From contig CM120640.1 in NCBI GenBank assembly GCA_051362555.1, forward strand, positions 11,718,001 to 11,782,000: a stretch of DNA of 64,000 nt, given 5' to 3'. The notes beneath the pieces were generated by a model, which was given only the letters and a program-made list of their open reading frames with translations, had not been told where the DNA came from and made no database searches. Below are positions 9,008 to 54,439 of this stretch, one piece after another (the stretch's first letter is position 1; the number at the start of each line of letters is the position of its first letter). Source of the stretch: Lingula anatina. Its lineage: Eukaryota; Animalia; Brachiopoda. The position numbers and the translations under genes are program-made.

Positions 9008-9793
9008 ATGCACAAGAATTTAGAGACAATGTCGTGCGGAAACTCGTCGCCGGTTTTCTCACAGGGTTTCATAATTATAAGAAGTCCGTACCAATCCAAC
9101 GAAAGTGGAGCTATGGTAGTGCCCACTACAAAATCATGCAATGAAAACCTGGACCCGGATTCAGAACCTTTACGCTGCAAAAGGCGCTCAGATATGAACA
9201 AAATTACTGGCGTAAAAACGCAAACAGGGTCCGTTATGAGAAGGAACGAACGCGAACGAAATCGCGTAAAACACATAAACAAGACATTCACTGTGTTGCG
9301 ATCACATCTGCCAAATGGACAAAACAACAAAAAGATGAGCAAGGTTGAAACACTGAAAAGAGCCATAGATTACATCAGATATATGGAAGATCTGCTAACT
9401 GAAACGGGCAACAATTTTCTCAGTGGACAAGTACAAACGGATTTGTCGTCTGGGGTGCCGTCCAGTATGAATTATTCTGCCAAGATACAAGTCCATCCCT
9501 CAATGGGCTCCTCACACGTAGAGGAACAGAGTTTCTTTCCTCAGAATTTGCAAAATCCAGTGACGACCCCCAATCAAGCACGAACACCTGGTCTTATGCC
9601 GCCAATGTATTACACTTGCACATCTCCCGAGGGCTATCAACAAGAAAACGTGCCAGCCACGCCGAACTCACCCGCAAATTCCATATCATCTGTCCTGTCG
9701 TCCGACTACAGCAGCCAAGTTTCAGATTCGTCTGCTGAGGATTTGATGAACATGGATGAAACGGATTTGGTGGATTTTGCTAACTTGTTTTAA
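9008..9793 (+). CDS. ASH: Achaete-scute homolog (ASCLa/ASH proneural bHLH factor), single exon
   Basis: LRCKRR motif; basic region SVMRRNERERNRVK; loop/helix 2 KKMSKVETLKRAIDYI; Ser/Pro-rich C-terminal half; acidic C-terminal motif DLVDFANLF*. The start may instead be the second ATG at 9029. Confidence 0.95.
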   Translation: MHKNLETMSCGNSSPVFSQGFIIIRSPYQSNESGAMVVPTTKSCNENLDPDSEPLRCKRRSDMNKITGVKTQTGSVMRRNERERNRVKHINKTFTVLRSHLPNGQNNKKMSKVETLKRAIDYIRYMEDLLTETGNNFLSGQVQTDLSSGVPSSMNYSAKIQVHPSMGSSHVEEQSFFPQNLQNPVTTPNQARTPGLMPPMYYTCTSPEGYQQENVPATPNSPANSISSVLSSDYSSQVSDSSAEDLMNMDETDLVDFANLF

Positions 9794-15700: not shown

Positions 15701-16939
15701 AAGACCGTGTTGACATCTTTCCTAATAGGACAGATCGCGCCTCAATTAGCTGCATAGTAATTTGCCGGTAGGCTATACAATTCATACATTATACCATCTT
15801 CTTATGGTTTCTCCTAAATCTGTCAAATACCAAAGCAGCTTTAAAGTCAAGAGATCACACACAAAGATGAGCGGCATTGTTGCGCAATGTCGTGCTGAAG
15901 CTATTCCGTGGGTGTTGCAGATGAATCCGAATGATTCTGAAATAACGGAGCTGGATAGAACTTATATTGTTCAAATGACGCAACATTTTACTACCGAATG
16001 TGATCGAGAATACGCCCATCAAATCAATGACAAGTAGGCCAGCTGATGCGAAGAGGATTACCCTAAACCAGATGATCGGGCATTCGTCTCTGTATCTATT
16101 CATCGACCAAAATGCATAGGCCTACCTTGTTCGAAATTAATATTTCTTGTAATCCTAGACTCGCTGCACATGGATAATGTCTTTACTTGCCTTAATTTAG
16201 GTATTATAATCCAGTCGTTAGCGCAAATAAACATTAACATCCTCGGATGCTTTGCTACAATCGAGAAAATCCTTCATAACATTTAAATGGGAATGGACAA
16301 TGCTTTGTTGCGTTGAAATAAAGCAGATCTTCATTTATCAATGGATATATAGATAAGAATTAACTGAAGTTAATATTTAAATAACATATATATCATCTGC
16401 TGACAGTAGGCTAAGACTTTGCTCAGGGAAATCGAGGCTTTGATAGGTTCAATCAGGTGCCCCCCCCCCTCCTCTGCTTGAACCCCCCTCCCCGGGGACT
16501 GAAAAATATAGACGTTGGTAGAACATGGAAAATCGACCCTAAACGTGACAAAGAAATGAAAAAAAAATACCAAGATAAATGTGTAACATACTGCAAGGTA
16601 ATAAATGTGCTATCACAGCTATGTTTATCCGATTCAAAGGAAAAAATCTGCAGAACCTCAAGCGTATTGTGTTAGTTGTGACCCGAAAGAAACATTTGTC
16701 GTTGTTCTCCATGTACTGACCTCATTTTCGTAACTGTGATTTCGAATACATAGAATATGAGGATACGAGAAGTGACTGAACGTGCCGAACGTGCAACATT
16801 GGAAAGCAAGGACGTAGGTCGAAGAAAATGGTCACGTACAGGCTAGCCAACGTCCGGAAAGCTGATAAGCACGAAGAAAAGGTCCAGCAGGAAAATCAGT
16901 ATTTAGTCAGTGCATATAGATAGAACGATTACCTCAGAT

Positions 16940-17287
16940 ATGAACATTATTAGGACTGTCAACACTGTTGCTTCTGCCGGCACTGGCAGTGGAAGACCAA
17001 GTCTATTTAGGTTGTTGCAAGGCTCGAACGTCCGAAATTTAGGGACATTAAGGCTGAGAGTTGAGAGACGAATTGCTGCAAACGGACCTCAACATCAGGC
17101 CATTTCAGTGCGTACTTATAAACGCGGTGGTTGGTACCAGGGGAAGGGAAATGAGAGCTTTTATCTGACTGTCATGTTGCTGGTTACAGCTGCTCATTTC
17201 CTTATATTTGGAGGTGTGAAACTGAGTACCTATTTAACCAAACGAAAAGAAGATAGAGGCGAGCAGAAAAGAAAAGTCTATATTTAA
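16940..17287 (+). CDS. Candidate 115-aa mitochondrial single-pass membrane microprotein (unrecognised family)
   Basis: ATG-initiated ORF in a CpG-rich promoter-like patch. It has 10 Arg and only one acidic residue in the first ~70 aa, a VRTY cleavage-like motif, a hydrophobic stretch FYLTVMLLVTAAHFLIFGGV, and a charged C-tail. Confidence 0.55.
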   Translation: MNIIRTVNTVASAGTGSGRPSLFRLLQGSNVRNLGTLRLRVERRIAANGPQHQAISVRTYKRGGWYQGKGNESFYLTVMLLVTAAHFLIFGGVKLSTYLTKRKEDRGEQKRKVYI

Positions 17288-18317
17288 TGGTTGGTACCCT
17301 TTCAACATTTTAGTCGAAAGTTAGCATTGTCAAAGGTAAAACTAAGAGGAATTTTTATGATTTTTAAGAATTTGAAAGATGTTGCTGTCATGATTAAGCC
17401 TTTTAAAGGTAACCTACATTGTATATCCTGTATTTTACATCATAACTAAATTTTCCTAGAGAGAAATATTATTCTCCTACATATTCAAGAATCATTGTTT
17501 GGCCTATTCTGCATTTTGATAGGATGTTTTATACCTGTTGTTGATTAAATGATTTAATCCTAAAACTTTCCCATAAAATGTAAAATGGCATCTGCCTTCC
17601 TTACATTTACAATATACATTAATGCACAGAATCAGAAATGGCACAACATTTTCACTTTTAAAAAACTAGTGCAGTGTTTTGAGCATTGGGTTTTATTGCG
17701 ATATACGTAGTCATCCTTATGAAGCTGAGAGATGCCATTGCTTGGATCTTGCAAGGATCTAAGGGTCTAAAAAGAAAATAATGGCATAATTAAGGTACTC
17801 ATTAGACAAACTTTTGTTAAAGGGGCTTTATTCTTTTCAAGCTCTGAATAGAAGCTTTGCAGGATTAAAGTATGACTTTTCCAAATGAAGCCAGGATAAA
17901 AAATAATTGTTATTCATATACTGTACTTTAGTTGTTAGACTGAAATGTGTGTTAACATTAGTTTGCATCCTTACATGCAGAGCCATTATTTTCATTATTA
18001 ATATTTTTTGCTCTTTTGTAGGATTATGGACAAGATGGAGCAAGTTGTTGTTGTACAAAATGTGGCAGTAGAAGAGATTAATCTTGACTTTGCTGAAGCT
18101 ATACAACTCTACAATAACACAAGCCATCTTCATCAGCCCAGTGTATAAAATCACAACAACATCAAACCATGGATGAACAGAACTGTGTTGACCTTAATTT
18201 AAAACAACTAGTTAGCTTTTTGTGAAAAATGGCTTGCCAAAAAATGTGTATGGATGTGCACAGCAGTGCCCACCTTGTTATGTTATCCTAAAACCGTCAG
18301 TGATCAATATTGAAATC

Positions 18318-18322
<5 letters not shown>

Positions 18323-18394
<72 letters not shown>
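18323..18394. repeat. Compound microsatellite (TA)n(GA)n
   Basis: Directly visible dinucleotide runs. Confidence 0.95.
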
Positions 18395-18397
<3 letters not shown>

Positions 18398-19615
18398 AAG
18401 ATGGAGATTACTTTTTTATGATTGTTAAAAATGCAATGTATTGACCCAAATGAAGAATCTTATTTATTAAGAAAATATCGATTCTAAAACAAAATTATTA
18501 ACTCTAATGCTGGACACTCACGTAGATCTGCCAGATTTTACAAATTCCAGTGTTTTGTCCTTATCACAAGGACATCTTCAGGGAACTGTCATTATTTTTT
18601 AATACCTCTGAGAATGCCTCTTAATACCTCTCAGATGGGTAGAAGCTGCATACTACACATTATTGATTAAGGAATTGTAAGGCAGTGAGTCAATAGTGGG
18701 AACATAGATGTATTTGCTCAATGTACTAATCGTGAATCATATGAGAAAAACTACTGTTTCTGTGAAAATGGTCCAAAAGATTAATTATATTTATCTATAT
18801 ATTTATTTGATGCTAAGATCCAATATAATAACTTATATTGGGTCTTTGATGTTGGTTTGATGCTTGCTATCATTAAAATTGGATGGAAATTTGCTAGCTT
18901 ATTTGTTTGGTAGATTTTTTTGTCTAAGAATACATATAACATTTATACCGGGTTTTTGCTACATGTACATTTTTATTGTTAATTATGGTTTAAGATTAAT
19001 TTTTTGGATATGTGACAAAAAAAAAAAAAAAAAAGGAATGGCGTTCCATATTGATAAACTACATCTGCATTTACCCCAATTTTCAACTTTTTCTCAAGAC
19101 AAATTTTCATGATCAGTATGCTTTTGTTATTTCTAGTGACGTTTGAAGGGCGCGTCTGAAGCATGCAGCATTGCTGGCATAGTTAAGCTGTGTACCTAAA
19201 ATCAGGGAATTATATCGGATATAATTCCATGCTAAAATGAAGGGTGCCTAAAGTATAAATTTAAACATTTATATGTCTTGCTGCATAAATCTCTTGTGAC
19301 AGGATTTTTTGTGTCTATCACATTATTAGATAACGGAAATGTTAATTCCCTTTGCCATGCACTTTCTGCTCGATGACCCACCAGGAGCTCCCGTCGGCGC
19401 TTGTTGCATTTTTAAATGGCTTATCTTGTAGAGAGCTCTCCCTAAAGAGGAGGTAGGATTCGCCCATTGGAAATGGAAAGCACGCTGCGAGTGATAACTG
19501 CATTTTTGGTGCACCACTGAGGAATATCTTAACAAACGTTGGCTGTTTTTACCGGCTGTATTTGTGCTCTTCTAAGGGCTTGCATCTTTTGCACAAGAAC
19601 CTGAATTCATACAAA

Positions 19616-22600
19616 ATGTCTTTTCGAAGATTTGGGATACTTAATACTGCCTCAAATTATATATGCAGGCAAAATGCGCACACAACGTTTAGGTTGTCCA
19701 CTCGTCTGCTTCATTTTCATGCCGGTAAATATGATCAACTATATGGATATCCTGGTTATCAGCATCGAATTGGAAGATTCAGAACAAAGACAGAATTAAA
19801 GTTAAAAACACACATTTTGATGAGTTCTAGATGGAAACAATGCTCTTCTTCAGGTGGTAATCAATCAACAAATGAACGGTGTGGAAACAACACAGAAGAA
19901 ACGGCAAAAGTTCACAAAGTGAAAAAGGGCATTGGAAGTTTGATCAGGTTTACATGCCTAAGTGCTGTTACATTGGGAGCTGCTGTATATTTGACTTATA
20001 AATATTCAGGCAGTTCAGACCCTGATAATCAAGACGAAAACCCTCTTGAATCAAATCGGATAAAAAGGGTGCATGATCCTGAACTTGGAAAGAAAGCCAA
20101 GTTGATTTATTACAAGGATGTTTATCTTCCTTACTTTATGGAAAATGAACTACAAGATATTGATGACTTTGAAGTAAGAGATTCAGACATATGGGTTATT
20201 ACTTTCCCCAAATCAGGTATAAAACTTTTCTTCTTCTTATGACCCTAGACTCGAACAACGTATAGTTTAGTGATTCAGCTAAGGTTTTAATATTAGACGT
20301 AAAAGAATATACCCAGTAATAATTAGTCCTGTCCAAATACATATATATTGCCAAAACATGTACGTGTATACCTCATATATGTGTATTCTATTGAAAACTG
20401 CAGAAACTGAATACTCCATTTGGTTCAAAATTATTTCAAAGGGAACATCAAAATAAGTGTTTGAACTTCAAAACATAAATATGGGAGATATGAAGATATA
20501 ATTATGACAATTTTTGTAGTCTGGCGTGTGTAACATCTTAATTCTTCTCATGCCTCCCCCCTCCCCCCATTTGTTACTTTTACTACCTCATTACAGTTAT
20601 TTTAGTTCCATTTAAAAGTATTTCATGATTGTATGAAATAAAACTTTGCTGAACTTTCTCAGATTTGCTGCTTTCATTTATGTTAATCACCTGTCAGATG
20701 TACCTATTTTGGCATGACACATACTAGTATCTGTACTTCTATAGCATTAGGGTCATTGCAAAGTACACAATGTACTTGAATTTTTCTACTCTGTTACATC
20801 TTTGACACTGCAAAATCAGTTTACTCTTATATTCGTAAAGATGTAGTTCAAGAAAGTTAAGATGAGGTGTATTCTTCAGTTTTATTCGAGTTCCTTTTTT
20901 ATTGAATATGCAATTTATTTTTTTATGTGTGCATTTTTTTGTTTGCTCCTCTGTTGGTAAAGAATAAGGTGATAAAATGTGTTTATTAATCTTATTAATC
21001 TCATTACACATATAAAATATATTTTTAAGTTTAAATGAAATGTTGAATATATTTACAGGTACTACATGGGTGCAGGAAATGGTTTACCTCATACAAAATG
21101 ATCTGGATGTGTCTAAAGCCATGGATAGAAATATGGAGGAGAGATTCAGTTATTTTGAATTTCCATACCCTGGACTCAAAACAATAAGTCAGGAAAAGCC
21201 ACCAAGATTCATTAAATCTCACCTTCCATGTCATTTACTGCCAAAAAGTATGACCACTTCAAAATGCAAGGTACTAGAACATTGTGTGCTCATGCATTTC
21301 CATATATTTATATTTATACATTTAATTGTACCAAGTATTTACTGTTATGATGCACAGAAGTTTCAGATGCAGATGTTCAAGATGCAGACGTATTTATAAT
21401 TTTGTTGACCATTTACATCTATTACAAATTTATGTACTTGTCTCTATTTAGTGAAGATGAGTTGTTTATCTGTCTTTCCCTGATTCCATCCACACAATAC
21501 AGGGTTCCAGAAGAGACAGGCTTGTGGCTGAAGTGATGTGTAGTGGTGTAAGACGTGAAGCTGAGTGGGCAATTTTAGCTTGAGGTGAACGGGAGTGAAA
21601 ACGTGGCCTCAAGAGAAAAAATTGTTTTTTTGCAATATTAGAAAAAAAGATAAAGCATTGCACAACGCTTGTGGTTTGGTGCCATTCAGTTATTAGTTGC
21701 GAACTACTTCCTGGTTTTCACGGGGTCCTTTAAGGACTCTAAAACATCATTATAAAACCCCCCAAAATAATTAGCCATGGGCATATCAGATTACAAACAT
21801 GCAAAAATTGCACATGACAACGATTTACAGCCTCGCGGGAATTCTTTTCCCCTGATGCTCTTTGTAGTACTGTAGGTTGATGCAGCATATATTTCAAAAC
21901 AAATTGACTGCAAATTAAACAAGACTTTGCACCTTCAGGTTTCCTAACATGTTTTCATATCATGTACGTATTATTTCTACATGTACAAGTATTCTCTGCC
22001 CAAAATGGCAAAAGAAAAAATGTTATCTCACCATATTGTTGGAAAAAACTGCTTTTTTCTCTGAGCCCACATCTTGAAACACGTTCACCTCCAGCTAAAA
22101 ATGACCACCAGCACAATCCTGTCTCTTCTGGTACCCTCTTTTTTGTCCTTTAAAAAAAAAAAAATCAAAAGTCCTCATATTGGTAAGAAAACCTTGACTA
22201 AAATTTAATGACAATGATGTATTTTTTCAGAAAATATATGTAGTCAGGAATCCCAGGGATGTAACAGTGTCTTATTACCATTTCATAAGAATGATCAATG
22301 AAATTAAATACAGAGGCAATTTCAGGGGATTTTTTGAGAGATTTAGGCTAGGCATGGGTAAGTGACTTTTTCTGCCTAGTAAGTAAATGTAGTTGACCAT
22401 TGTTTGACTATTGTTTCAAATAGCATTCAATTTCATCTTCATTTAGGTATCGGAGTTTCAGTTATAGAATAAAGGTAAATTGTTTCCAATAGCACTCAGT
22501 TTGATCTTCATTTAGGTGTTTGACTTTCAGGGTAGAATAAAGATTATATTGAAGGAACATTGGGTAAAACAATATGTGAAAAATACAATATTCATGTTGA

Positions 22601-24373
22601 TTTTTTCTCCTTTGGACCAGTTGCTTATGGGCCATGGTGGGATCATGTGAAAGGCTATTGGGAGCATAGGGATGATGAAAACATGTTATTTCTGAAGTAT
22701 GAGGACTTGCAAAAAGTAAGCAATGAGAAAAAACTAAAGCTTTAATAATATGAATACTTTAAGCAGTAATGGGACGTGTTCACAATGAATTTATCGACCA
22801 AGCTACATTGTGCTCACACTAACTCCACAGGGACTCTTGCTGAATGCAGTCAGATTAACAGATTAACACTGGCGTTAAGTGGATGATGATATGATTATTG
22901 GAAACAAGAGGGGGCATGTTAGTCTGTTAATCTGATTGCAGTGAGGGTCACCATGGAGTTTTAGTCACTTGTAGCTAGGTTGATAAATTCATTGTGTACG
23001 GGCCCATAATCACATGTACCTGAAGACAAACATAGCTTAACATGGGGAAAACTTTTCTGATACTGATTCTGTGCTGGTCCGAACTAAATATTTTATTTCC
23101 ATTAAATTATGTTTAAATGTGGTTTATTGTTATTCAGTGTATTTTCACATAAACCTTGTCATTCTAGAGGACCTGCTTTATCAAAATAGTGCCATTCCTT
23201 GGGCTTTCTGAGGCGGTCATAACTGGTCTGACCAATAGTTTTCCCATGTCTATGAGCATACTGTTTTTGCTTCCTTTTTATTTTTGGTCAGGATGCACAT
23301 ACTGTCTGTAATAATACAATTACTTTATTGACACTCTTTTTTTTTCAAGGATCCTTATGGGGGAGTAAAGAAAATTGCAAAATTCCTGGGAAAAGACCTA
23401 AACGAAAAGGAAGTATACAATGTGGCAGTATACTGTAGTTTCTTTTGCATGAAGGACAATCCAGCCTCAAACTATTCTTGGTGGGATACTTTTGGTTTAA
23501 GAGATAAGAAAGAGGCAAAATTCCTACGAAAAGGTGAGGTTGCTTTTAGGGCTGTGCTACTTTCAAATGTCATACACACCCCATTTCCATAGATTAGATC
23601 GACCTACTTTAAATCGACCTAACTCCCTGGGGGTTCACGCTAAATAGCTGTCAGCCGGGCAGACACGAAAGTTAATTACCCCCTTACAGCTTGTAGTAGG
23701 CAGGACGGACATTTAAGTCAGATTATCTGAAAGTAATCTAGTGAGACTCCCCGCGGGGATAGATTGATCTAAAATCTATTGGAATAGAGCCTTAGATACA
23801 TGTTCATCACTGGTCCTACCAGTCTGCTGTCATCGGGTGACCAGATCACATTACATCCAGAGCTGTAAATCTCACGTGAAACATTAAGAACCAGCTGTGT
23901 AGAGTTATTAATGAAATAATACAATATGTATAAACACTTTATTTATCAGCAGGCTTCATTTATTAAATAAGGTGCCTTTGTGTATTTTTACTCCTTTTTT
24001 ACTCCATATTTGTTTGAAACTAAACTACAAAGTACAGGTGTAATAATGAAACATTTTTCAGCTTTATCTGTTATTTGGCAGCCAGCATTTTGTTAGTTTT
24101 AAATTAAAAGTGCTAATACTTTATTAGTAAAATCAACATTTCCTAGTTTGCTGTCTGTTCATTCATTTGTCTAAGGGGATGTTATTTTACAAGTAAACTT
24201 ATATGTTGTTTTGTCATGTTCAAAACCAGTTTCTATTTAAATATTTTTTAGGGATAGTTGGTGACTGGAAAAACTACTTCACAAATGACATGTGTCACAA
24301 AATGGACCAGGTAGTGGATGAAAAATTGGCAGGAACGGGTCTGACATTTGAATACGAGATACCAAAACGTTGA
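19616..24373 (+). CDS. Cytosolic-family (SULT4A1-like) sulfotransferase with N-terminal presequence and transmembrane segment, ~446 aa, 6 exons
   Basis: Exons 19616-20216, 21059-21270, 22231-22357, 22621-22715, 23350-23533 and 24252-24373, all GT-AG and phase-consistent. Motifs: 5'-PSB TFPKSGTTW, catalytic KSHLP, 3'-[42 protein letters not shown]. Confidence 0.93.
22770..23006. mobile_element. Foldback MITE (PIF/Harbinger-like) in SULT intron 4
   Basis: ~100-bp imperfect inverted arms (TGGG..CACAATGAATTTATC..CTACA..CAGATTAACAGA). TAA flanks both sides (22767-22769 and 23007-23009). Confidence 0.75.
23577..23791 (+). mobile_element. 215-bp Harbinger-like MITE, copy 1 (SULT intron 5)
   Basis: Same length as, and highly similar to, 60596-60810; imperfect ~30-bp TIRs; TTA on the right flank. 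Confidence 0.85.
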
Positions 24374-26385
24374 TTATGTGACAAAATGAATGCAAGCCTC
24401 TTAGAAACCCATCTCTCAGCAAAATTTCTAAAACAGTGTTTTGTGCCAATTACTGTACTTTGTATGATTTCTCTATGGTTGACATGTCCTAAATAAAGGT
24501 GGCATTTTTTGTTCCTACTCTGATCTTTCTGTTTTATATCTGCCTGTACTTGCACTGAAACTTTAATTTTTATTGTGTCATGAACATGCTGCGTTTGCTC
24601 AATCTTGACTCTCTGCTTGTTTACTGGGCACATTATAACGTCACATGCACCCCGACTTACCCCTCCTTCCTACCGGTACATTGTTTCCTAAGATAAATCT
24701 TGATTGGATAAAACTTTTTAATTATTCAGGGATAATCGGATGAACTAGTAGCGTACTGGCAATTTCTCTCAGCCGTAATATGATAAGTGGGTTCGATACT
24801 TTATAAAGGCCTATATTTGGCAAAATGACGTTTCTCCCATTACTTTTACGTGAAATGCACACCATAATATAAGCGCAATAAAAATGAACAATTTTAGAAA
24901 ACAAAATCCCTTGTCTGTTGCTTTATTCACCACTTCACGCAGATCTGCACAGGGTTGTAAGTCGTCAGTTTTCCTGCTTTGTAAATTTGTGTGATATAGT
25001 GATCTACTAGTTAAGGCAACAACATGAAAATTGGCGTGGTCGTCGAATAGGGTGTGAGCTACAATCTGACGTCCGCGTTTGATTTAGGGGAAATTGGCAC
25101 CTGTTCCTGGTACCAGAAATGTGATTAAATCCGCTTTAAAACGGGTTGATAGCTATTCAGGCGAGGGATATTATTTGAAAGCGATGTTTCAGTTTTTACC
25201 TAAAGTATCATCAGCTCGAATAAGCATATTCATTCCCATGTATTTTTGATGCGACAGCATGATCTCATAACATGAAACTCTATTTCCGCATTATCTAAGC
25301 TGATATCGAGAAAAATCAGTACGTACCGAACCCGTGAAAAGGGGAACCTAAACAACATACCTCCGCCCTATGTATAGAGGGAACGGCACAGCAAAGGGCG
25401 GCGTAATAAGATGGAATTTCTTTTCTAGTTCGACATAATTTTCGACAAAAACACTGGTCAACACAGGAGCAAGCTTTCTGCTTTTTTTGTGTTTTACAAA
25501 CAGGAGGAAAAATAAGTGCTGAAGGTCAAATTTACAGCCAAAAGTTTGAAGAGGGTGCAAATTTTAAACCTTTTTCTACTGAACGAGATATTTTTCCTTC
25601 TTTTTGCCTGTGCATTGTATTCGTGTTGTATACGATGCGAGCCTACTGTTACTTATTTAATTTACATAACTATTTATTTACGTTACGTGGCATTTGCTCT
25701 CAAGACATTAAAATTTTTTTTCATATTAAACGAAACTTAAGTCAGTAGTCTAACTGATAATAAATTATTAAAAGGGGATAATGCTTTACGCTTACGCATT
25801 TGGAAAAATGCGAGATTGTTGCATCGTGATTATTGCAAAATAAATTATAAACAAACACTAAATAGGGACCAATTTATATGCAGAGGGTGATCACTCCTAT
25901 AGAATAAAGAATAAAAAGCACAAAGATGAACTGGTAGGAAAGGAATCAAAATGACATGTGTCCTAACAAAAACAGCCGATTTTTAGTTTGTCCAGGGGAG
26001 TTTTACTATTTTAAAAATAATTTAATGAATCAGACATAACTGTAATGAGGAGGTAAAAGACGAAGGGTATTATATGGGAATGATTAAATTGTTACGGTCG
26101 CCAAATACGCAGCCGGACAAATAACTGGCTCCACACTGAAAAATTCGTCATCATAATTTTAATTAACTTATAAGTGTTATTTAAGCTATATAAGGTATTA
26201 AATCTCTTTAACTTGTTTTTTTTTTTTACTTCAAATAATTATTTTTGCGTCCCTTTAGAAAATAATTTTGAACGAACCTTCCTTTTAAGTGGCAGTTTTC
26301 AATAATATACACCACGAATACACGTCTACGACGCACCCACTGTACTGGTATTCATTAATTTTTTGGCAACGTACCAGATATTTAA

Positions 26386-26903: not shown

Positions 26904-29900
26904 ATGACAGGAGAACGGATTGCCGGTGAGCATGATGTGTCTGTTTCAAACCGTTAGATTGAAAATGGTATTAAAAGAAAGTGATAATTGTGTCAGTTAT
27001 CATAATTAACCCAACAAAAATGCCTTTATTCACTGAAAATGACACTTCTTTTGGTGTTCGAATAAGGAAAGTTGGCGGGTAGCCAGACCACCGTCTTCTT
27101 ACAATACTCGCTCTGTTCATTGGCTCAGATTTTGCCATGAAATTTGAGCTTATGTGGTTTAATGTCAATTTTTATTGTATTAATGTTTTCACGTTTAAAT
27201 TTGCCCGTATTGTTACCAGTGTAGATATCAAGGGCAAATAAATTTGATGATAATATTAGTCTAACTATACTCTGTAACTGGCTGGAAATGTTCACGTATT
27301 TGTTTAATCCATATCAATACCAACTATATATTTTTTCTCTTAGAGCCACCCAGACTCAACCTGGAGAAAAGTGTTACCCTCTTCAAACTATTATGTGAAG
27401 GCACACCTGGTGACATTCAGAATGCAGACATTGGCTTTGAATTTCAAATAAGTAAGTGAGAAGAGTCCAGTCTAACATGAAAATTCATGTGTTCACACAT
27501 CTGTTTATGGTCTCCACTTTGTACTATACATGCTGATGCATGAAAGATATACTAGTGGTTGCACATAACTGTAAAATTACACGCAGGTGATTATTTTCCC
27601 TCTCACCTCCTCAAGTCCCACACTCCCGTAAAGCCAACCAGTATTCCCATCACATAGCTGTAATGCAAGATTCGTCTGTTTGTCTTCAAGTTTTGCTGTT
27701 GTGAAATAATAATCTGCGAATGAGGGAGTAATGATGGCCATCAACATAGTTCTGAATGCGAGAAGTGCATTGGGGATTGTTTCCCACCTAAAAGCAAACT
27801 TGAACAATCACTTTGGCAAAGCAACTTCCATTGCCCATTATTCTCTATGTTAGGAATGAATAGGGTCAGTTTTGTTGATGTGCAGTCACTTTAATAAAGA
27901 TTTTTTCCTTTTCTGTTTCTTCAGAAACCCATGGAGGAGACTGTGGTTGTAATAGGGATTTGGAATACCAGTGGCATGACAAATTTGACATGGAGGAAGT
28001 TCTCCGAGTAGGTACCTGCCTTTGTAATAACAACACAGCAATGGAAACATCTTCAGAATTTGACGAGGATTGCTTTTACCCCTCAGCAAATTGTTGTGCA
28101 AGTTTCTTTCCTCTTCATGTAGCAACAGCTTCAAACAAACCTCTGATGGTGAAATGGCTGATTGACCGCGGTGCGGATGTAAACTGTAGAACTGCTGCAT
28201 GGCAAATGACACCATTACACATCTGTGCCACACATGGCCACGTTGACTGTGCCAGGGTGCTTCTTGAAGCAGGTGCGGACTTGAACATCCTGAACAAGTC
28301 ATTACACACTGCTAGTTCATGGGCCGTTTTCAACAAACAGCTTGGTGTGCTGCAGGTGCTCTTAGAAAAGTTTTGTGCTCAAGACCCTGTTGGTAACTCA
28401 CCTGGACCTAAGGATTTGGTCCACATGTGCCTTGATTTGTTTATGACTGACTCTTTTGAAGAGGCATTACAGATGGTCATCAAAGCAGGTAGGTATACAG
28501 TTGGTTCTTTGGTTATATACATGTACTCATTGGATCTAACCGTAACTGCCCTGACCGTAACTGTTCATATAAAATTTTTGTTTTGGTTTCTATTGGATTC
28601 CTTTAGTATTTTGTAGAAAAGTATTATATGGGAAGCAATTGTATTGCGGAAATTCTCAGTAACTTTATTTTTACAAGAGGTGGACAGATATTTAATTAAA
28701 TTCATGTATAGTTTGAATAAATATATATATTAAACAATTTTGCTTCAGGTATAAATGTAAATGTTCAGACTAATGGTAGAACGCCACTACTGCGGGCAAT
28801 AGAAGAGAACAGTCTAAGGGGTGTGGAGTTATTGTTACAAAGCCCAACAATCGATGTCAATGTTGCAGGGTTTCATGGACAGATCACTCCTCTGTGTGCA
28901 GCCATAGAGATGTCCCACGGTAAGTGGAAGTAAAACCATCACATTAGATGCCCATTGTCCATAATGAATTATTTTATCAAAGTAGGTTAAAATATTGCAT
29001 ATCTTTTCGATTTTATTTCGATAGAATTAATAATTTAGATAAGAAGATTTCGAGTAGATAAAGTAAGCCAGTTGGTTAAAACAAAATAAAGAGATTTGTT
29101 AGTATTGTCATAGTGGGATATTAAAGTTACTGTTTACGTTTCCTTGGTTCTTGTAAGATTTAAAATCATTTTCTTCAAAACATTTTCTCTCTTTCAGCTA
29201 ATATAAAGATCATAAGCATGCTTTTGGAAGCCGGGGCTGATCCTAACTTGTGTTCAGAGGGAGATAATACACCTGTTATGATTGCATCAGTGGAAAACAA
29301 ACCTGACGTTGTCAAACTATTGATTGACCATGGAGGTGATGTGAACCTGGTGAATAACATGGGCTACCAGGCCTTGCACTGGGCTGCCTGGGACAACCAT
29401 GTAGGAGTTATGAAAGAACTCCTGTCTGCTGGAGCTAAACCTGATTGTCAGACCAGTGACAAGAACACACCCCTTTCTCTTGCAACACACGGTGATGCCA
29501 TGGCTGCATTTAACTTGCTTCTACCTCTGGGTTGTAATGTCAATAATAAAGACAAGGATTTGGACACTGCTTTGCATTATGCTGCGTACAATGGCAACTT
29601 AGAGATGGTTCAGAGTCTGATTAAACATGGTGCAGATCCCGAGATGTTAAATAATGTGGCTGCCACTCCTCTGTGGAATGCTGTTTATCAAAACCACTGG
29701 AATGTGTTTCAGTATCTCCTCAAATTAAATGTCCCTCTGGATGTGCCAAGTAGGGGTATAGACCAGCATGCACAATCATCTGATGTTGTTTATATTTACC
29801 CTCAACCTGTGACACCATTTTATGTGGCCCTTGAAACTGGCTTTTTTCCCATGGCACAATGTCTAGCTGTGGCAGGGTACAACATTACAAAGGAATATTG

Positions 29901-30150
29901 TATACAAACTGGAGATGTCCCAGATGCTTTATTGCACTCTCCTGAAATGATGAACTGGCTAGATCAGGCCATCTGTGAGCCCCCAAGTCTCATGTCACTG
30001 TGTAGGTATCAGATTCGCCAGGGACTTGGAAGAGAAGTCAAGGAGAAGGTACAACAGCTAGAGATACCAGTGGAACTTAAGCATCATTTGTTGCTTACTG
30101 ATTTAACCAGCATTCAACTTGATTCTCCATTCACACTTTTGAAGTTGTGA
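26904..30150 (+). CDS. Ankyrin repeat and SOCS box protein (ASB family), ~605 aa, 5 exons
   Basis: Exons 26904-26925, 27344-27451, 27925-28488, 28749-28919 and 29198-30150, all with phase-1 joins. Many TPLH/GADVN ankyrin repeats and a C-terminal SOCS box (PPSLMSLCRYQIR..LEIPVELKHHLL). The first two exons are less certain. Confidence 0.88.
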
Positions 30151-32400: not shown

Positions 32401-35400
32401 TCACGAAGCTCTTAGAAATGCTCCGATGAAGTCATTGTAACTTATTTTTCCCTTCAAGTCCTTATCATAGTATGTCATAAGGTGGTAAAATTCATTCTCG
32501 CTTAAGTTCAGGTTAAATTCTCGAAGCACTTGTCGGAACTGGGCTGGTGTAACAATTCCTAGTCCAGGTTTGTCCATCATTCGAAATGCTCTTCTCATTT
32601 CCTTCCATTCACTCACAACACTTGATTGAAGTCTTTGCATGGCTTCGAAAAAGAATGGGCTCCCTTCACCTGTGCTGACCTGAAATAAATATATAATATA
32701 CCATTTAAAAGATCTGGTTCAAATGTGGCACCAATGTGTAAAGAAAAAAGAAAACTTATAACGGACGTAATGATTCTGATACCTCTGGTTTACAGTGCAC
32801 ATTTATTTTGAAGGTCATTCTGAAAATTTGAGTTAGAACCATTTATTTTCCAAACCATCCATGAGTCTAGTATGATATACATGTATAGATTCACCAATGC
32901 AAAGAGCATGGGAAATGCAATAAAAGAGATGACATTAAAGTTATACCATGTTTATCGATCTATGAAACTCATTCAGTTTCCACGCCATAGGATGAAACCT
33001 TATGTTATACAATGCCTGTAAACAACATTGGCTCTGTTTTGATCACTTCCACTGCAATAATAACATCCATACTACAAACCACAGTATAAATGAGAAACAG
33101 TAAAGGGAACCAATTGAAGGAAATATGGGCTCACAACGAACAAAAATGACAAACATGCAGAATTCATCCGTGAAAATAAAGGCAACAGGATCAATACAGA
33201 CAGGACTTCAGAAAACGTGTCTTAAAATCTTTTTTAGCACAGACAAAGTTAAGAAAAAGTGTCAATTCAAATAATTCCACAGTGCATGCATTAGTGGCTT
33301 CTTGCCTCATCTTTGTGTTTAGTCTTCCATAGAATGTCTTGTACTAGAGCTTCCAGTGTCATGGTTCTCTCCATTTCAAATTTGTAAGAATCAGTTTTAC
33401 TTCTTCTATGCCTTTTACGAGTGCGTGATGATCTAGCACTCATGGTTACATCAAGTGCATCACTGACACCATTCTCTTTATTGTCATCATCTTCCTCATC
33501 AATTTTTTCCTATACACACATGACGCACAAAGGAATACTGTCATTTATTTAATATTTCCTAGCACTTTACAGATACAGTATATTTGCTATACTTGCATTT
33601 AGTGACTTGGTTCAAAATATTGCAAAATGGATAATTTCACTTTATAGGGCCACACATTTTAGAATGTGCATGGTTTGTATCTGAAGACTTCAATAAACAT
33701 CATAAGACAGAGTCAATAGGTTACACATACAAACTGAAGATGTCTACAAGAAATAAACAGTAATTTATTTATTTATTGTTTTTATAATTTTTCATATTAG
33801 GAGACATACCAGTGGGTAATTATAAAAAAAAAAAAAAAACGAAGCAAAAAAAAAAAAAAAAAATTATTCATCAAATTGAACTACTATTGACAAAAATTGA
33901 TTCTGTCATATTAAACAGCCTATATCTACCTACCTGCACTTTGGGTTCCTGCAGCTTCTTTCTTCCAAAACCCTTGTCTGCTGCTCTGCTCAGGACAAAA
34001 TGGCGCAGGAAATGAACATATGAAAAACGGCCATTTTCTTTTAGGTCATACTTGATCATTAATTGGTCAAACTCATAAGGAGCCATTTCAACTCCAAGTT
34101 TGTCAAATATATCTGAAATTGGAAAAAAGACTCCATTAAAATCTTTATGTTCACTGATTATTTCACTGTGAAATGGATTCAAGTTTTGCAAACTAATAGT
34201 GATAAATATTTTCACTACTTGGCATTGGTGCTATATACTGTACGTAGGTTTGTGTGTAATTATAACATTCAATTGCAGTAACTGCAATACCACTGACTTA
34301 CCAAAATTTCATATAACCAAACTACATGTGTATTACACTTCGAGTATTTCAGATATTTTCAAACAGTTCACCAACTTAAAAAAAAACTTCTACATGCCGA
34401 ACACCATTTTAAGTAGCCAATGGTATTGTAATGTATACCTTTGATATCTTGCATTTCCACAGTCCCAGTATTCTCCTGATCACACAGTCTACACAGCCTC
34501 TGTATGTCCTTCCATGTACGGTGAATGTGGTCCCTAAGCTTGTTCTCAATGTGTTCTGCATTGACTAGAGGTGTATAGTGCCCACCACCCTGACCGGACT
34601 GCCTGGACCCGACTCTTGATCCTGCTCTGGACCCTGCTGGGGTGCCCATTAGCTCAGACTGTCAAGAATATTTAGAAATATAGATTTATAATTTATGGGA
34701 ATTAAAGTAGAAATGTGTACCCAAATATGAAATATTCCTCCACTAGAAATTGTGGGAATTTGTTTGTATATAACAACTGAAAATAATGCAAGAACTACAG
34801 TGTAAAACTCAGTAGAATATAGAGAAACATTTGGAACAAGATTACACTGTGAGAAGCATAAACAAGCCACACAAATAAGTTTTCCCTTGACAGTGCTATT
34901 AACAACACATTTCTTTCTTCATCTTTTTATGTAACATCTGGACTCTTTTTGTTATTGTGTTTACAAAACATGGATGTCCACAAAAGCATATCATATTACC
35001 AGTGGGCAAGCAAAACTACCCATTGTAATTGATCAAAACAGGCTACAGTTACACTACAGCTGTTACTTAAATCTCCAAGTTAAAAAGTATACCAAACAGA
35101 GAGGTTTTACATATCTACATGAACATGATTATCAAGTTTCTCCTCAATCATTAAGAATGAAAAACAATCTTACCCTAGCTACAGATCCCGATCTCAGAGA
35201 GAGTGGTGTTTCAGACCTGCGGCCTCCAGGTGAAGCCCCAAGCTCAGAGCGGGAGCGAGATGGAGGTCTTGGCGATGTACTGTTGCTGTATCGCTTCAAG
35301 AAGTCGCGATATTCCAGGTTGCCGAACTCATTGATCTTCAGAGTGTCCCACAAGTTCTCAAACTTGAATAAAAATTTGAAAATGATTAAAATTAATTTGT

Positions 35401-38400
35401 TCAGCCTGTACATTTTAATATTCATTGGCACCAGTAAGACTTCTTTCATGATAGTCTTTTTTGAAACAGTTATCTATAGAGAGAGGCGGACATAAAAATA
35501 TAAATTACAAATTGTAATGTTAAAAATATGTTGCTTGATTGCTGTGAAGATCAATTAAGTATTACTGTTACATATTAGTATGTAGTGAAAATATTTTACG
35601 AGCAAAATATCTGCAGTACATCACATAAGATGTACAGGTAAGTACTATGACAGCTAGGTATAGTACCTGATCATTGGAAAGCCTAAATGAATTCCTATTC
35701 AGCACATTTCTGAAATCCTCTTTGGAGACCACTCCTATTTTGGCATAGTCAATCTCAGCAAATGCTCTGGCCATCTGGTAAAAATGGGTGGTGACATTTT
35801 CCCGAAGTGCAGCATGAATCTCTTCCATACCCACAGACTGCTGTGGTGTTCTTCCTCTCATCATGTTTCTTTGAAGAGTTTCTAGCCATTGCTCAGATTC
35901 CTGCAATGACAGTAAACAAATGAATGTAATTATTTAATACATAAAGTTGAATTATTCAATACATATTATTTTAATAATTATGTATATTTTCAAGTGTAAT
36001 TATGACCAGCAAATGCTTCTCTTGATATTTAACTGGAGATCCATCCCTTGTCCAGTTTGTTTACTCTCTAAAAGTCAACTAGCTATTAAAAACAAAGACA
36101 ATAAATAAATAAATACAATCAAAACAAAATTAATCTGAAAAGGCCCCCTTCAAATTACCTGTTGTGTATCTTGCTTGAAATAATCCATGAAATCTGGGTA
36201 AGACACAGTATTATCTCCCTGAGCACTCATCCTGCTCATGAGATGCCGGTACTGTGCATCTGTCATCTTGAAGCAGAAATTATCCAACACACGGCGGAAA
36301 TCTGCTGTGCCAATAACCCCTGTTTTGTCTTTATCGAAGGCAGTAAATGCCTGCAGTAAAATAAGAGAAACATGGCTGCATGAGAATTAGTCAGTAAAGT
36401 CTGTTCCGATATGGTACATGTGCAACTAACTGTTTGTCATAAATGGCCTGCTGTACTAGTATGCTCTTTTGTAACTGTAATTAAGTCTAAAGCAGAGAAT
36501 GAAAGTATTCTGATCTACCCAGTATCACATTTAAAATAATATCAAACAAGTCTTTCAATCATATGGTAGTACACACTAAGGCAAAATAGACCATGATTTC
36601 TATTGTACTTACAGATATGAGAACTTCAAAGTTATTGCTGATTTTATCACGAATTTTCTTTTCTGCAGAAGTGGGATTCAAATCTTCATATTCCTCTAAC
36701 TGAACATCTGTTCTGTGACCGTAGCTGGATTTTCTGCCGTCTTCAAATGCCTTCAAAAACTGCTCATAATTTATCCTGCTGTTGGTAGCTACTAGCCCGA
36801 TCCTGAAGAATATTTAGGTTACACGCTTAACTGTACAAGCTTTCTATTCTGTTTACATCCACTCCATAGCAACGACCTCTGGCTACACTCCTAATGTTTA
36901 TTCAAGGTCACAGACTGCCTTTATCAACACTCAGCTCTTTAACAAATATTTAATCAAAGTGGATATTACATGGTTGACATGATTTCAATTGAACCAGTGA
37001 AAAGAGTCGATTCTCCTCACATTATACTGATGTTTAACTGGAGTAGTTTCCCAATAAACTTTGATCCTGTCCTGACAAATTGCTTTTTCATGCATAACTA
37101 TTTAGCACAAAATGTGGCCAATAATAGCTTTTCTTATAAGCCAAACAATGGAGTATTATTCAACCTTAGGTGACCTCAGGACACATGATATGGCTAAATA
37201 TGATTTGTCTCCAACAAACATATTTACTTCATTAACATTTCTCAAAAATAAAAACATTTAGGTGAGCATCATATATGCAGGTACATGTATGTTAATCTGA
37301 CACAATACAAAAGAAACAATCGGATTAAAAAAAATCTCAGAACATTATTATGAGATGTGCATAATTGACTGTCTGTCAGGCAGATGCATTTTATTGCATT
37401 TACATGTAGGGAAACTGTCCGTGCTATTCTTTTAATGATAATAAACATATAAAGAGATTAGACAGAAAAAATTATATTTAGAAATTTGATGTAAGTACTT
37501 GTGTATATAAAACCACTTTTCGTCAACTTCTTTAAAAGTAAATATATATATATGTAGTTTCTATATGTATTTACATATTTTTTTTTTTACTTTGCAAATC
37601 ATTTTATCTCCATTTCATTTTTTTTCTTGTTGTTTTTCATAAAAAATGTTTAGAAAAAATAATTTTTGAACATTTTATCGGTAAGAAAAAAATGGATTCA
37701 AGTTATTAAAATTTACTCATTATGTTTTCATATGCCATGTTTTGCAAGCATTTAACAACTATGTCAACATTTCTATCTACAAACCATATCATATCAGAAA
37801 GATACATGTAAAAAAAAAAAAACATTTACTAAATTGTACAATACTTCACATATAAACCTTCTTAAAAATAATCAGTGGGATTAGAGATCAAAGACGGAAG
37901 CTTTTGTTCAGCCCATATAAAATGATACTCAAATAAGTGATCTGAAAAATGTTTTTGCATTTAGTGCTTTGAAGCTGCAGTTTGCATTTAGGAAAAATAT
38001 CAAAGATGACATGAAAATCCCTTTACATGAAGTATTTTTCACTAATAACCCATCCCATGCACCTTTAAATTAAGTACAATTTGTTGACTTGAAAAAATCT
38101 TCATTTAATATACCCATTATTCTGTATGTTAACTACATGTATATTAACTAGTCAAAATATAATACACTTACTTATCTAAAAGCTGGTAGAACTGGTCATC
38201 ATTCAGGAAGTAATTCAGGTCCACCAGTACTTTCTGTATTTCACTGACAGACAAGGATCCTTTTTTCTTGGTATCATACTTTTTAAAGGCAGCATACATG
38301 TTGTCATATTGGTCACGGAAACGATCCCTAAATGATGAATTGAAACATCAATAAATGCATGTTCATATATTGATGTGAACTTTATCAAAATATACCATGC

Positions 38401-41400
38401 ATAATACTTTAATAGATATACATCAAAAATGAAAAATGAGAATGAAAAGCATGATTAATATTTCAATTATTACAAAATAGAATTTTATTTAGAAAGTGTC
38501 CATTAGTAAGGCAAAATATTATTTAAAAAATTATTTTATGAATATTTACCTTGCTTGATATTTTAATATTTAAAAACTTTGATATAAAATAACCATATTA
38601 TGTATTTAAAAAAGGTGTCTCCCGCAATTTTCATCTTGATCAAGAATACAGTGATTGCAATGATTTATGCAAAACAACCCACCTTAATTCTCTTTCCACT
38701 TCATTCACAGACATCACAGCCGTCCTCTCTGCCTGGTGCTGCGTGATCCTCTCATGTTTTGCTTGCTGCTGTTGATGGTGCAGGTCCAGAGCTTTGTAGC
38801 TGTTGTCAACTATCTTTCTGCTGGTCCCACCCATGTCCCCAGGGGCAAACTCAGCTGCTCCCAGTTTCTGCAGGAAGTCTTGATGGGTAACATATCCTTT
38901 ACCTTCACTGTCATATCTTGCCCAGAGCTTCTTAAACTCTTCTTTCTCCATGTGAAGAATAAACCTGGCCAATGTTGAGCGAAGCTCCTTCTTTGTTATT
39001 ATGCCATTTCCATTTTTATCCATTGAGCAAAATGCCTATAGCAAGGAAAAAAAGAAATAATTACGTGCTGCTGAACTGCTTGTATATTGTCTTGATTAAT
39101 AGAGGGGCAAAGGCTTCAGCACATCAGAAAAATTTTCAAACTGATTCTTAAATATATATAAAATTTGTTTTGAGGTCACATATTTTGTTTATCTGAAGTT
39201 AAATGATATGTCATTTTTCATGGCATTATTTCATGCATCTTTAGTATGATGATAATTATTAAGAGGATCCATCCCTTTTAAAGATTCAAAATCACATAAA
39301 ATCTGAATCCAACATCCAACACTCACCGTGGAAAGGTCTTTCCACTGAGCATGAACTTTTTGAGCTAAAATATCATGCACTGTATCTGCTTGGAGGAGTT
39401 CTGGGTAATATGTATCATTGAACCTAAAAAGTAAATGAAATAATTCCCAATACATGTTGCTGAAAGCAGATAAATGCATAACTGAACTATCTGGTCTGGT
39501 GAGAGTTTTCTCCTTTCATTTTTTAAAAATATCCTACTACTGATACATGTAGAATAAAGAATGCATCAGATGTTCCAATAAAATGAAACCACCTTTAAAA
39601 AAGTGTTAAACAAGTGTTACTAAATTTCCTAATGTCAGTTACCTGTGATCCGAATTGAGCCATTTGTGTCCTTCAGGTGTGTCTCTAATCTCAAAGGCAT
39701 CCAGGAAATCCCGGTAACTTAATTTGGTCTGTTTGGTGAATCCCAATCTTTGACATAATCTCTCAAACTCTTTGTCTGGCATGATGAACATAAAAGCATC
39801 TAGCAGACGACGGAAATTTGCTTTTGTTAAAAGGCCATTATGATCATCATCAAACTTGTAAAACGCACCCCTAAGGTCCTGTAAAGCAGAAGGAATATAT
39901 CAGTTATTCTCAATATAAATAGTTGCAACAAGAATATCAAGATATACAATAGTGCATCTTCCATAAAAAATGCTGAATATTAATCCAAATAATCATTATG
40001 TACTACAATGAATGATGAACTTGTTATATTCAAAATGATTTTTTCATCATTTGAGCTAATAATAATGATGCACTAACATGTATTTGTATAAACAATATCA
40101 TTAAGTTGAATATATATGGTACTAGTATATAATATTATATATAAATAAATGATTTTCAAAACCATATATGATACTCACGGCAAAGTTTTCCCTAAGTTTA
40201 CCGAGAAACTTTGCTTCTACTTGTTCAGCAGTCATTCCCACTTCATCTCCCCTGATGGGGTTCACCCTGTGGTTAGGCTGATGGACATTGCCAGGGGATG
40301 CATCACCAATCCTGGGGTCCTCAAATGCCATTACAAAGTCTGTGTATGAAAGGTGCCCCTTGTAAAACCCAAGCTTTTCTGTCAAATTCTTGAAACATTC
40401 ATCTGACATGACCATGCCGAAGCTGCTAAGAACCTGTAAGAATTTAAAAAATAACCACTCAATTTAATCAAAAAGGAATACTGACCATTTATAGCGTACT
40501 AAAATATATTTCTATCTTCAATGAACTGTAAGCAGTTTTTCTCAAAAAATTTAAGTCATAAAATTATTTGGTATCTTCATAAAATTATCAATTTTTGTAA
40601 GTCAATAGAATTTACATGTGAAATACAATGTAAATGCATTATTTGTAATCACTTACCTCCCTGAAAGACTTCTTTGAAATTTTGCCTTTGCCCTTTTTAT
40701 CAAATGATAAAAAGGAGCGTCTAATTTCTTGATTGTGTTGAGCCATTCTGTCTTTCAGCCTCACAATCACCTCTTCAGGAGTCATGGCATTTGTTCTATC
40801 TAGGTTTGCCTTGTTTTCAAGTGCTTGTCTACAAAACAAAACAAATTAAAAAAAAGCCCCAGTATTAGAGAATCCTTTTCTAACAAATTAATAGTTTTAA
40901 TCTAAAAATCATCTGCGCTCCTTTAAATTCTTTTTGATGTTTTACCTTAGGGTTGATGTGATAACCATTTTATCATTTTTCCTTTGATCTTATGTAAAAT
41001 CACGTTTATGAGAAGTAATATGCAACTTCCCTTTTCTGTGTAATCTTTCAAAGTATTTCACGTACAGAGTGCATTGTTATTTGAGCCAAGGAGTTATAAC
41101 AGAAGGAGATTACACGCGTGGGGGCGGAGCCCGTATTACGGTCTCTCATTGGTCGGAATGAATAGAACCCAGAGAACAATGGATGCCTATCTCTGTTACG
41201 CTTAATTGCTACTCTCGTTTAAATCTCGTTTGTTAGTATCTGTGCCTTCGTCTGTTGATTTTTGAGGACAGAAACAGAAACGGAGTCCCAAGTTTCTAAA
41301 AAATGAGAGAAATACAGAATTTATATGATATTACGTTGGACAAGGTTTTCAAAAAACAGGTAAGTGCTTTAAAATGCATAACTACACGAAATAGGAAGAT

Positions 41401-54258: not shown

Positions 54259-54439
54259 ATAATAAAAGATCGATGTATATCTCTGAGATTTTGAGAAGAT
54301 AAAATCATACTCTTATAGCAATTCTGGTTTTTAAAAATCATATCTACAGGCCATTAATACACCGGATCTGAGTCTCAGTGCCTAATATTATAAAGTTAAT
54401 TTATCTATATTATAGCCTACATCGGAGTTCTTACGGTCT

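Follow-up and report, generated by a model that had tools for sequence, protein, structure and literature searches.

The locus described here raises the question of whether an animal sulfotransferase of the cytosolic type could carry its own mitochondrial import signal and membrane anchor, and what such an enzyme would tell us about vertebrate SULT4A1. The gene lies on the plus strand at positions 19616 to 24373 of a 64,000-nucleotide stretch of the brachiopod Lingula anatina (contig CM120640.1; hereafter the window, whose numbering is used throughout). Animal sulfotransferases are classed either as cytosolic and soluble or as membrane enzymes of the Golgi, and the Lingula protein departs from the soluble plan of about 300 residues in having 446 amino acids (aa), with a leader and a hydrophobic helix. 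The initial annotation had treated this as the peculiarity of a single gene. The gene is real, but we found that its N-terminal extension is a trait of a protostome-wide subfamily that includes molluscs, a tick and mites. Judging from sequence, the protein is very probably mitochondrial in one form or another. The arrangement that we favour, with a little better than even confidence, is a TIM23 stop-transfer anchor in the inner membrane that would leave the catalytic domain facing the intermembrane space.

Joining six exons, with every intron bounded by GT and AG, gives an open frame that translates into the 446 aa. The parts of the transcript, all on the plus strand, are as follows.

19490 to 19615, plus strand: putative 5' untranslated region, its start approximate (sense-strand RNA depth)
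19616 to 20216, plus strand: exon 1 (aa 1-200), with the leader, membrane helix, linker and the start of the SULT domain up to the loop binding 3'-phosphoadenosine 5'-phosphosulfate (PAPS) (frame, RNA)
21059 to 21270, plus strand: exon 2 (aa 201-271), with the remainder of the 5'-phosphosulfate loop including Trp204, and the catalytic His255 (frame, PF00685)
22231 to 22357, plus strand: exon 3 (aa 272-313), with the 3'-phosphate-binding Arg277 and Ser285 (frame, PF00685)
22621 to 22715, plus strand: exon 4 (aa 314-345) (frame, PF00685, RNA joint)
23350 to 23533, plus strand: exon 5 (aa 346-406), with a full-length lid (loop 3) and Arg405-Lys406 (frame, PF00685, RNA joint)
24252 to 24373, plus strand: exon 6 (aa 407-446 and stop), with the GxxGxW motif and a degenerate dimer motif (frame, PF00685, RNA joint)
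24492 to 24497, plus strand: first AATAAA 3' of the stop (sequence)

The RNA evidence comes from six raw-read runs with the same species label (X1, X2, X3, X4, X5 and X7), sampled at about 6 or about 25 per 100 reads, and these read back all five exon junctions. The joint from 20216 to 21059 was found in 4, 3, 1 and 0 reads in X1, X4, X3 and X7, while those from 22357 to 22621, 22715 to 23350 and 23533 to 24252 were each read in three of four runs. The junction from 21270 to 22231 is not among the listed joints and was recovered from loose read ends, 3 in X1 and 4 in X5, whose sequence is that of exon 3. At the 5' end, sense-strand depth climbs over bins 19428-19609 in X2, X3 and X5, and from about 19490 it spans ATG 19616 and the leader in the same runs, which places the proposed start codon on the mRNA. 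No joint or loose end pointing to an upstream exon spliced into exon 1 was found in these runs, at low depth. There is no ATG between 19476 and 19615, the nearest ones 5' of the start being at 19416 and 19473; the next after these is ATG 19616 itself, with A at -3. At the other end sense depth persists as far as roughly 24800; the second AATAAA is at 24877.

A few further observations concern the same transcript. Only X1 shows sense depth of 2.6-3.4 at 19246-19427, separated from exon 1 by a gap; this is either repeat-derived reads or a longer 5' end that would add the ATGs at 19416 and 19473. The X3 loose-end consensus at 21270 (3 reads, agreement 0.73) equals the start of exon 4, which suggests some skipping of the 127-nt exon 3 in that run, with a shift of frame. 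Intron 4 contains nested inverted repeats at 22778-22999, with arms of 30 nt (90%) and 29 nt (86%), resembling a miniature inverted-repeat element. In intron 5, 23576-23795 is a high-copy dispersed repeat with hundreds-fold read depth from both strands and dissimilar flanks.

The approximately 150-residue addition that had been proposed for exon 1 comes to about 155 residues ahead of a cytosolic-type SULT domain, and consists of a basic acid-free leader, a Pro-free hydrophobic helix and a charged linker.

19616 to 19930, plus strand: predicted mitochondrial presequence and matrix-side leader (aa 1-105; 19 Lys/Arg, 5 Asp/Glu), from composition, the targeting being inferred
19931 to 19999, plus strand: predicted single transmembrane helix (aa ~106-128), Pro-free, from hydropathy, the model helix and relatives
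20012 to 20053, plus strand: acidic/polar linker (aa 133-146), candidate stop-transfer charge cluster, from composition

As had been noted, the first acidic residue is D40, and aa 1-30 contain 5 Lys/Arg and no Asp/Glu. The highest hydropathy over 19 residues is 1.64 at aa 106-124, with the described Lys cluster before it and the acidic linker after it. Exon 1 has no match in Pfam. Its AlphaFold2 model (16 sequences, pTM 0.28) has a helix at aa 95-132, with pLDDT 73-90 over aa 101-130, preceded by a low-confidence and largely unstructured region at aa 1-92 that contains a helix at aa 20-38. The chance of 150 stop-free codons at the local base composition is about 7e-5. Given an open frame, 1.5% of 20,000 random 150-mers combine the leader criterion with an equally hydrophobic helix (leader alone 4.7%, helix alone 32%), thus the extension of one sequence is moderate evidence only.

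What settles the reality of the extension is its conservation across the family. The annotation had looked to other invertebrates for the extension, and leader and helix are indeed present in octopods, bivalves, gastropods, a tick and mites. A query with exon 2 led to two proteins of 508 and 518 aa, both with leader and helix. Exon 1 searched against 1.84 billion representative sequences gave 19 matches, 16 of them with leader and helix and 3 starting too late to tell. An ESM Atlas search with exon 1 gave no usable match, and in a word-index search of longer proteins 0 of 722 candidates scored, which was weak evidence and was overturned by the larger search. All 18 first-exon fragments of relatives end at the same intron position as Lingula exon 1. 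Searching with P0001 returned 93 proteins, in which 15 of the 16 single-domain matches at E<=2e-77 carry the extension, as do two mite-type matches at weaker E; the lone exception among the 16 begins past the helix position. The carriers identified by name are Octopus, Argonauta, Mizuhopecten, Sinanodonta, two Elysia, Lymnaea, Ostrea, the tick Ornithodoros and the mite Halotydeus. A cluster in the ESM Atlas, made up of 79 proteins of about 422 aa that are mostly molluscan, also matches the scallop member.

The relatives share the layout more than the letters. Their leaders are poorly conserved in sequence and place 33-177 aa ahead of the helix (32 pooled sequences), yet the helix begins 73-90 aa ahead of the PAPS loop and contains no Pro in any family member. 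Over the first 30 aa the pooled leaders have 9.6% Arg and only 2.0% Asp plus Glu, compared with 12.3% Asp plus Glu in 74 other SULTs and 5.7% in random frames, and an upstream hydrophobic segment occurs in just one of the 74 controls (a metagenome protein). The strict cleavage motif R-x-[FYL]-[SA] is found in 15 of 32 leaders versus 6.5 in shuffles (p=0.001, which is optimistic given that the sequences are related). A broader motif (13 of 32 versus 3.5) was defined after viewing the alignment, and we used the strict motif alone. Many relatives have an Arg-x-aromatic-Ser site 15-25 aa N-terminal of the helix.

Two sequences at the edges of this family deserve a separate mention. P0039, a 345-aa SULT, falls inside the extension-bearing branch beside the tick and mite rows with an N-terminus that is only weakly hydrophobic; it is either a truncated record or a case of leader loss. 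A second ESM Atlas cluster, of 110 sulfotransferases with a 408-aa representative and Chordata as its commonest phylum, scored 0.88 against the scallop member, below the tool's bar, and is a lead for chordate SULTs with the extension.

The catalytic domain appears able to work. PF00685 matches exons 2-6 in order at 24-48 bits each (cut-off 22), and the claim that the cofactor motifs are intact held up in sequence: K199, W204, H255, R277, S285, R405-K406-G407 and GxxGxW are all kept. The lid is full-length, with exon 5 aligning to SULT1C3/1B1 with one extra residue, and across the family it measures 24-25 aa in 20 of 20 members, with W204 and RKG retained. Vertebrate SULT4A1 is reported to lack PAP (3'-phosphoadenosine 5'-phosphate) binding, with a Trp-to-Leu change and a short loop missing the Lys (PMC1847840). 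These three lesions, the lost Trp, the short lid and the RKG without its Lys, are absent from the Lingula protein, where all three sites are of the intact type. Because the features whose loss stops SULT4A1 binding PAP are all kept, the Lingula domain is likely to be an active PAPS-dependent enzyme. The KxxxTVxxxE dimer motif is found in none of 21 family members, versus 25 of 75 other SULTs.

The case for the inner membrane rests on how such proteins are sorted. Presequences are described as basic, hydroxylated and acid-free, and helices without or poor in Pro that are followed by charged clusters are described as arresting at TIM23, which yields proteins with the N-terminus inside and the C-terminus outside (PMC11452304). 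The Lingula leader agrees with the first description on composition alone, and the second is also present, the cluster after the Pro-free helix being acidic in Lingula and basic in most relatives. It is because the family fits this pattern of presequence, Pro-free helix and charged cluster that we favour the inner membrane and a domain in the intermembrane space. The leader would act as a presequence for TOM and TIM23 and be cleaved by the mitochondrial processing peptidase (MPP). The helix and the cluster after it would then halt import and allow lateral release, leaving the N-terminus in the matrix and the catalytic domain outside. Cytosolic PAPS could enter the intermembrane space through outer-membrane pores, so that a carrier would be unneeded. 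Since the dimer motif is lost, the enzyme may be a tethered monomer. It could conceivably act at the membrane on a lipophilic acceptor with a hydroxyl or phenol group, for example a sterol or quinol, a speculative guess prompted by the anchor and by the action of SULT1C2 on mitochondrial cholesterol.

Several points weigh against this proposal. The chief one is the basic flank that follows the helix in most relatives (Lys plus Arg 0.36, Asp plus Glu 0.09 per residue), given that the review emphasises acidic clusters after stop-transfer helices (PMC11452304). The Lingula helix, at 1.64, is weaker than in most relatives (mostly 1.7-2.4) and contains Arg111. Its leader places 105 aa before the helix, exceeding the usual 8-80, and lacks the strict cleavage motif, and RNA reads show the substitutions R5T, R26S and L27V in it. 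RNA depth at the 5' end is low (about 1-12), with zero depth in X1 at 19519-19609, ahead of the ATG.

The rival location that survives best, which we consider unlikely, is the outer membrane, with the protein arrested at TOM or held by a signal anchor and its catalytic domain cytosolic. A moderately hydrophobic helix with a basic C-terminal flank is the pattern of outer-membrane signal anchors, and the family helix is of this kind, the flank being strongly basic in most relatives; this location would also give the simplest access to PAPS. However, such anchors usually sit at the extreme N-terminus without a presequence, and here a presequence-like leader enriched in cleavage-like motifs comes first, of the lengths given above. 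In yeast, SULT4A1 has been reported to sit on the outer membrane's cytosolic side (PMC8803991), which is in favour of this location.

It is quite improbable that the domain lies on the matrix side, with the helix crossing TIM23 and re-inserting from inside, or being too weak to arrest. The weak Arg-containing helix of Lingula, the tick and mite helices with hydropathy of only 0.9-1.6, and the agreement of the basic C-terminal flanks with the positive-inside rule for a matrix-facing C-terminus would all suit it. On the other hand a PAPS carrier would be required, and the family helices are Pro-free and mostly at 1.7-2.4, where conservative sorting is described as preferring weaker, Pro-rich helices (PMC11452304).

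We give the same low probability to the secretory pathway, in which the helix would be a signal anchor for the endoplasmic reticulum (ER) and the enzyme would be either luminal, of the Golgi type, or at the ER and turned towards the cytosol. Golgi sulfotransferases have one helix after a Lys cluster, followed by a stem, which is similar to the extension here. As type II proteins they also have a short cytosolic tail and more positive charge before the anchor than after it, contrary to the family, in which the C-terminal flank is as basic as the N-terminal one or more so (Lys plus Arg 0.36 after versus 0.29 before). Moreover, the leaders are long, variable, nearly acid-free and carry MPP-like motifs, and the domain and introns are of the cytosolic SULT type. 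Vertebrate SULT4A1 has been reported in microsomal fractions as well (PMC11275347), in keeping with a secretory location. That the extension is unused, with translation from Met69 or Met175 giving an ordinary soluble SULT, would fit the poorly conserved, polymorphic leader and a branch member (P0039) without a clear leader, but is very improbable because untranslated sequence would not keep its frame, helix and spacing from octopods to mites, and because the covered transcript has no ATG earlier than 19616, which is preceded by A at -3.

With a stop-transfer inner-membrane anchor still the favoured location, we turn to ancestry. The initial annotation had grouped the protein with SULT4, and part of this stands. 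Human SULT4A1 is the best match in the PDB for the tail of exon 1 (28.6 bits, no SULT1 listed), for exon 3 (34.3 versus 31.9) and for exon 4 (39.1 versus 37.5), which puts it first in 3 of the 5 pieces. In 20 of 21 members the Lys-His spacing is 56; SULT4A1 shows the same value and SULT1 one of 60. A spacing of 56 occurs in 3 of 61 measurable others, and three cnidarian SULTs have it. A 17-sequence family profile gives SULT4A1 298.6 over 216 positions and SULT1C2 318.9 over 284, and with a control profile, made from 18 other invertebrate SULTs, the two scores are 270.6 and 330.5, a gap of -20 bits for the family versus -60 for the control. Vertebrate SULT genes have exons of 127 and 95 nt, as do exons 3 and 4 of Lingula, and SULT4A1 exons 2 and 3 presumably come to 212 nt together, the same as Lingula exon 2. 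In a published tick tree a single tick gene, SFT-142, falls together with human SULT4A1 and fly St1-4, SFT-142 being listed as a single-copy gene of 388 aa with six coding exons and no exon of untranslated sequence only (PMC11752866, Table S18). The other conserved tick SULT gene, SFT-7 of clade B, has 421 aa (PMC11752866).

The remaining exons give the SULT4 grouping less support, and other results also speak against it. For exon 2 SULT4A1 is fourth (40.8 versus 47.2), though aligned ungapped, and for exon 5, the lid exon, it is absent among the PDB matches. By family profile it ranks 7th of 44, and the tick member puts it 19th of 43. In a 2024 review SULT4A1 is regarded as specific to vertebrates (PMC11275347). 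No deuterostome is found among the named carriers, and an 'ancestral SULT4 function', which had been suggested, would require one.

We also built a quick and a careful tree, neither of which took in a vertebrate SULT4A1; rows lacking the loop match were dropped (6 from the quick tree, 1 from the careful one), and the careful tree also omits near-duplicates. The careful tree (41 rows, LG+G4) joins 15 extension-bearing rows and a single further row in a branch at 81/93. This branch sits in a starred 97/95 group together with SULTs of the insect type and short ones from bivalves; vertebrate SULT1 falls outside that group, on a starred branch of its own. The family branch itself is unstarred, and the quick tree placed 3 short bivalve SULTs among the extension-bearing rows; both count against a clean family. 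Strict monophyly of the extension-bearing proteins was not recovered in either tree (4 changes over 20 rows in the quick one, 2 over 15 in the careful one), and was not rejected by the approximately unbiased test (p=0.202).

Taking these results together, we consider the family probably orthologous to vertebrate SULT4A1, and it is likely to belong to the lineage that yielded that protein, in which anchor, Trp and a portion of the lid are missing. There is a smaller but appreciable chance that it is a protostome-specific offshoot of a broad group that includes insect SULTs, its likeness to SULT4A1 reflecting slow evolution or shared primitive features. The cnidarian spacing and the missing deuterostome carrier suit such an origin, as does the finding that the best whole-domain matches of the family are SULT1 members (SULT1C2 and SULT1B1). 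It is harder to reconcile with the first rank of SULT4A1 for three exon pieces and with the published tick tree, and the pieces where SULT4A1 fails include the lid, which SULT4A1 has shortened.

More tentative still, and for now doubtful, is the full scenario that orthology and location would make up together. The catalytically intact form of the SULT4 lineage would be a mitochondrial inner-membrane sulfotransferase from octopus to ticks, and vertebrate SULT4A1 would have been derived from it by losing presequence, anchor, Trp and lid while staying at mitochondria. The lid of lamprey SULT4A1 is reported to be longer, of intermediate size (PMC11275347), which suggests a stepwise decay of SULT4A1. 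SULT4A1 is described as essential in mouse neurons and linked to mitochondria, and has gone about 25 years without a substrate (PMC11275347, PMC8803991). An intact relative that is predicted to bind PAPS would offer a straightforward substrate screen for its lineage. If the location is right, a cytosolic-type SULT with its own import signal and anchor, from molluscs to chelicerates, would define a third sulfation compartment. There would then be a dedicated sulfation step inside animal mitochondria, whose substrate would be the long-sought ligand of SULT4A1.

The rest of the window holds other features, which the gene scan gave as follows.

9029 to 9793, plus strand: single-exon basic helix-loop-helix gene, which we take to be achaete-scute-like
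27879 to 30150, plus strand: ankyrin/SOCS-box protein
about 33871 to 40463, minus strand: multi-EF-hand protein
52969 to 54353, minus strand: broken reverse-transcriptase element
63022 to 63891, plus strand: exon ending in a phosphatase-like segment, with no Pfam match

Additionally, 5' of the sulfotransferase gene an expressed open reading frame of 115 aa lies at 16940-17287 on the plus strand, with no Pfam match. It has a presequence-like start (first acidic residue E42), one helix (hydropathy 1.93 at aa 75-93) and a basic tail, and its product is a candidate small mitochondrial membrane protein. The gene has an intron at about 17290-18021, beginning 2 nt past the stop codon, and a 3' exon reaching to about 18860. 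Over 16798-18561 run X7 differs at many fixed positions where X1, X3 and X4 agree with the window, which may mean that a divergent population or a cryptic species is included under the species label.

Literature searches, in which subscription journals were thinly covered, found no description of a presequence-bearing, membrane-anchored SULT of the cytosolic type, and no sulfotransferase using the TIM23 stop-transfer route. The family sequences themselves are already in databases, several of them auto-annotated as 'sulfotransferase 4A1(-like)'. Single-pass inner-membrane proteins of the stop-transfer route resemble the Lingula protein in presequence-like leader, Pro-free helix and charged cluster. 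The mitosomal sulfate activation of Entamoeba likewise ties sulfation chemistry to a mitochondrion-related organelle, but there PAPS is made in the mitosome and exported, and all SULTs are reported as cytosolic (PMC6801973). Tick clade A SFT-142, with Drosophila St1-4, compares by length and exon count only, at 388 aa and six coding exons beside the 390 aa of the Ornithodoros family member, and we infer that it is a member of the Lingula-type family; the available text of PMC11752866 makes no mention of a targeting signal for SFT-142 or SFT-7. SULT1C2 and SULT1B1 share the complete PAPS site, Trp, full lid and RKG and give the top whole-domain scores, but they are soluble proteins of about 295 aa with the dimer motif and a Lys-His spacing of 60. 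SULT1C2 has been reported to sulfonate mitochondrial cholesterol (PMC11411706). Vertebrate SULT4A1 (PDB 1ZD1) remains the nearest solved structure for three of the five exon pieces, aligns ungapped over exon 2, has the same Lys-His spacing and is reported to associate with mitochondria (PMC8803991). It differs in having 284 aa and no presequence or helix, and in being peripheral on the cytosolic face of the outer membrane (PMC8803991). Leu takes the place of the adenine-stacking Trp in SULT4A1, whose lid is short and whose RKG lacks the Lys; it does not bind PAP (PMC1847840) and keeps the dimer motif, so that on each of these sequence features the Lingula protein is its opposite.

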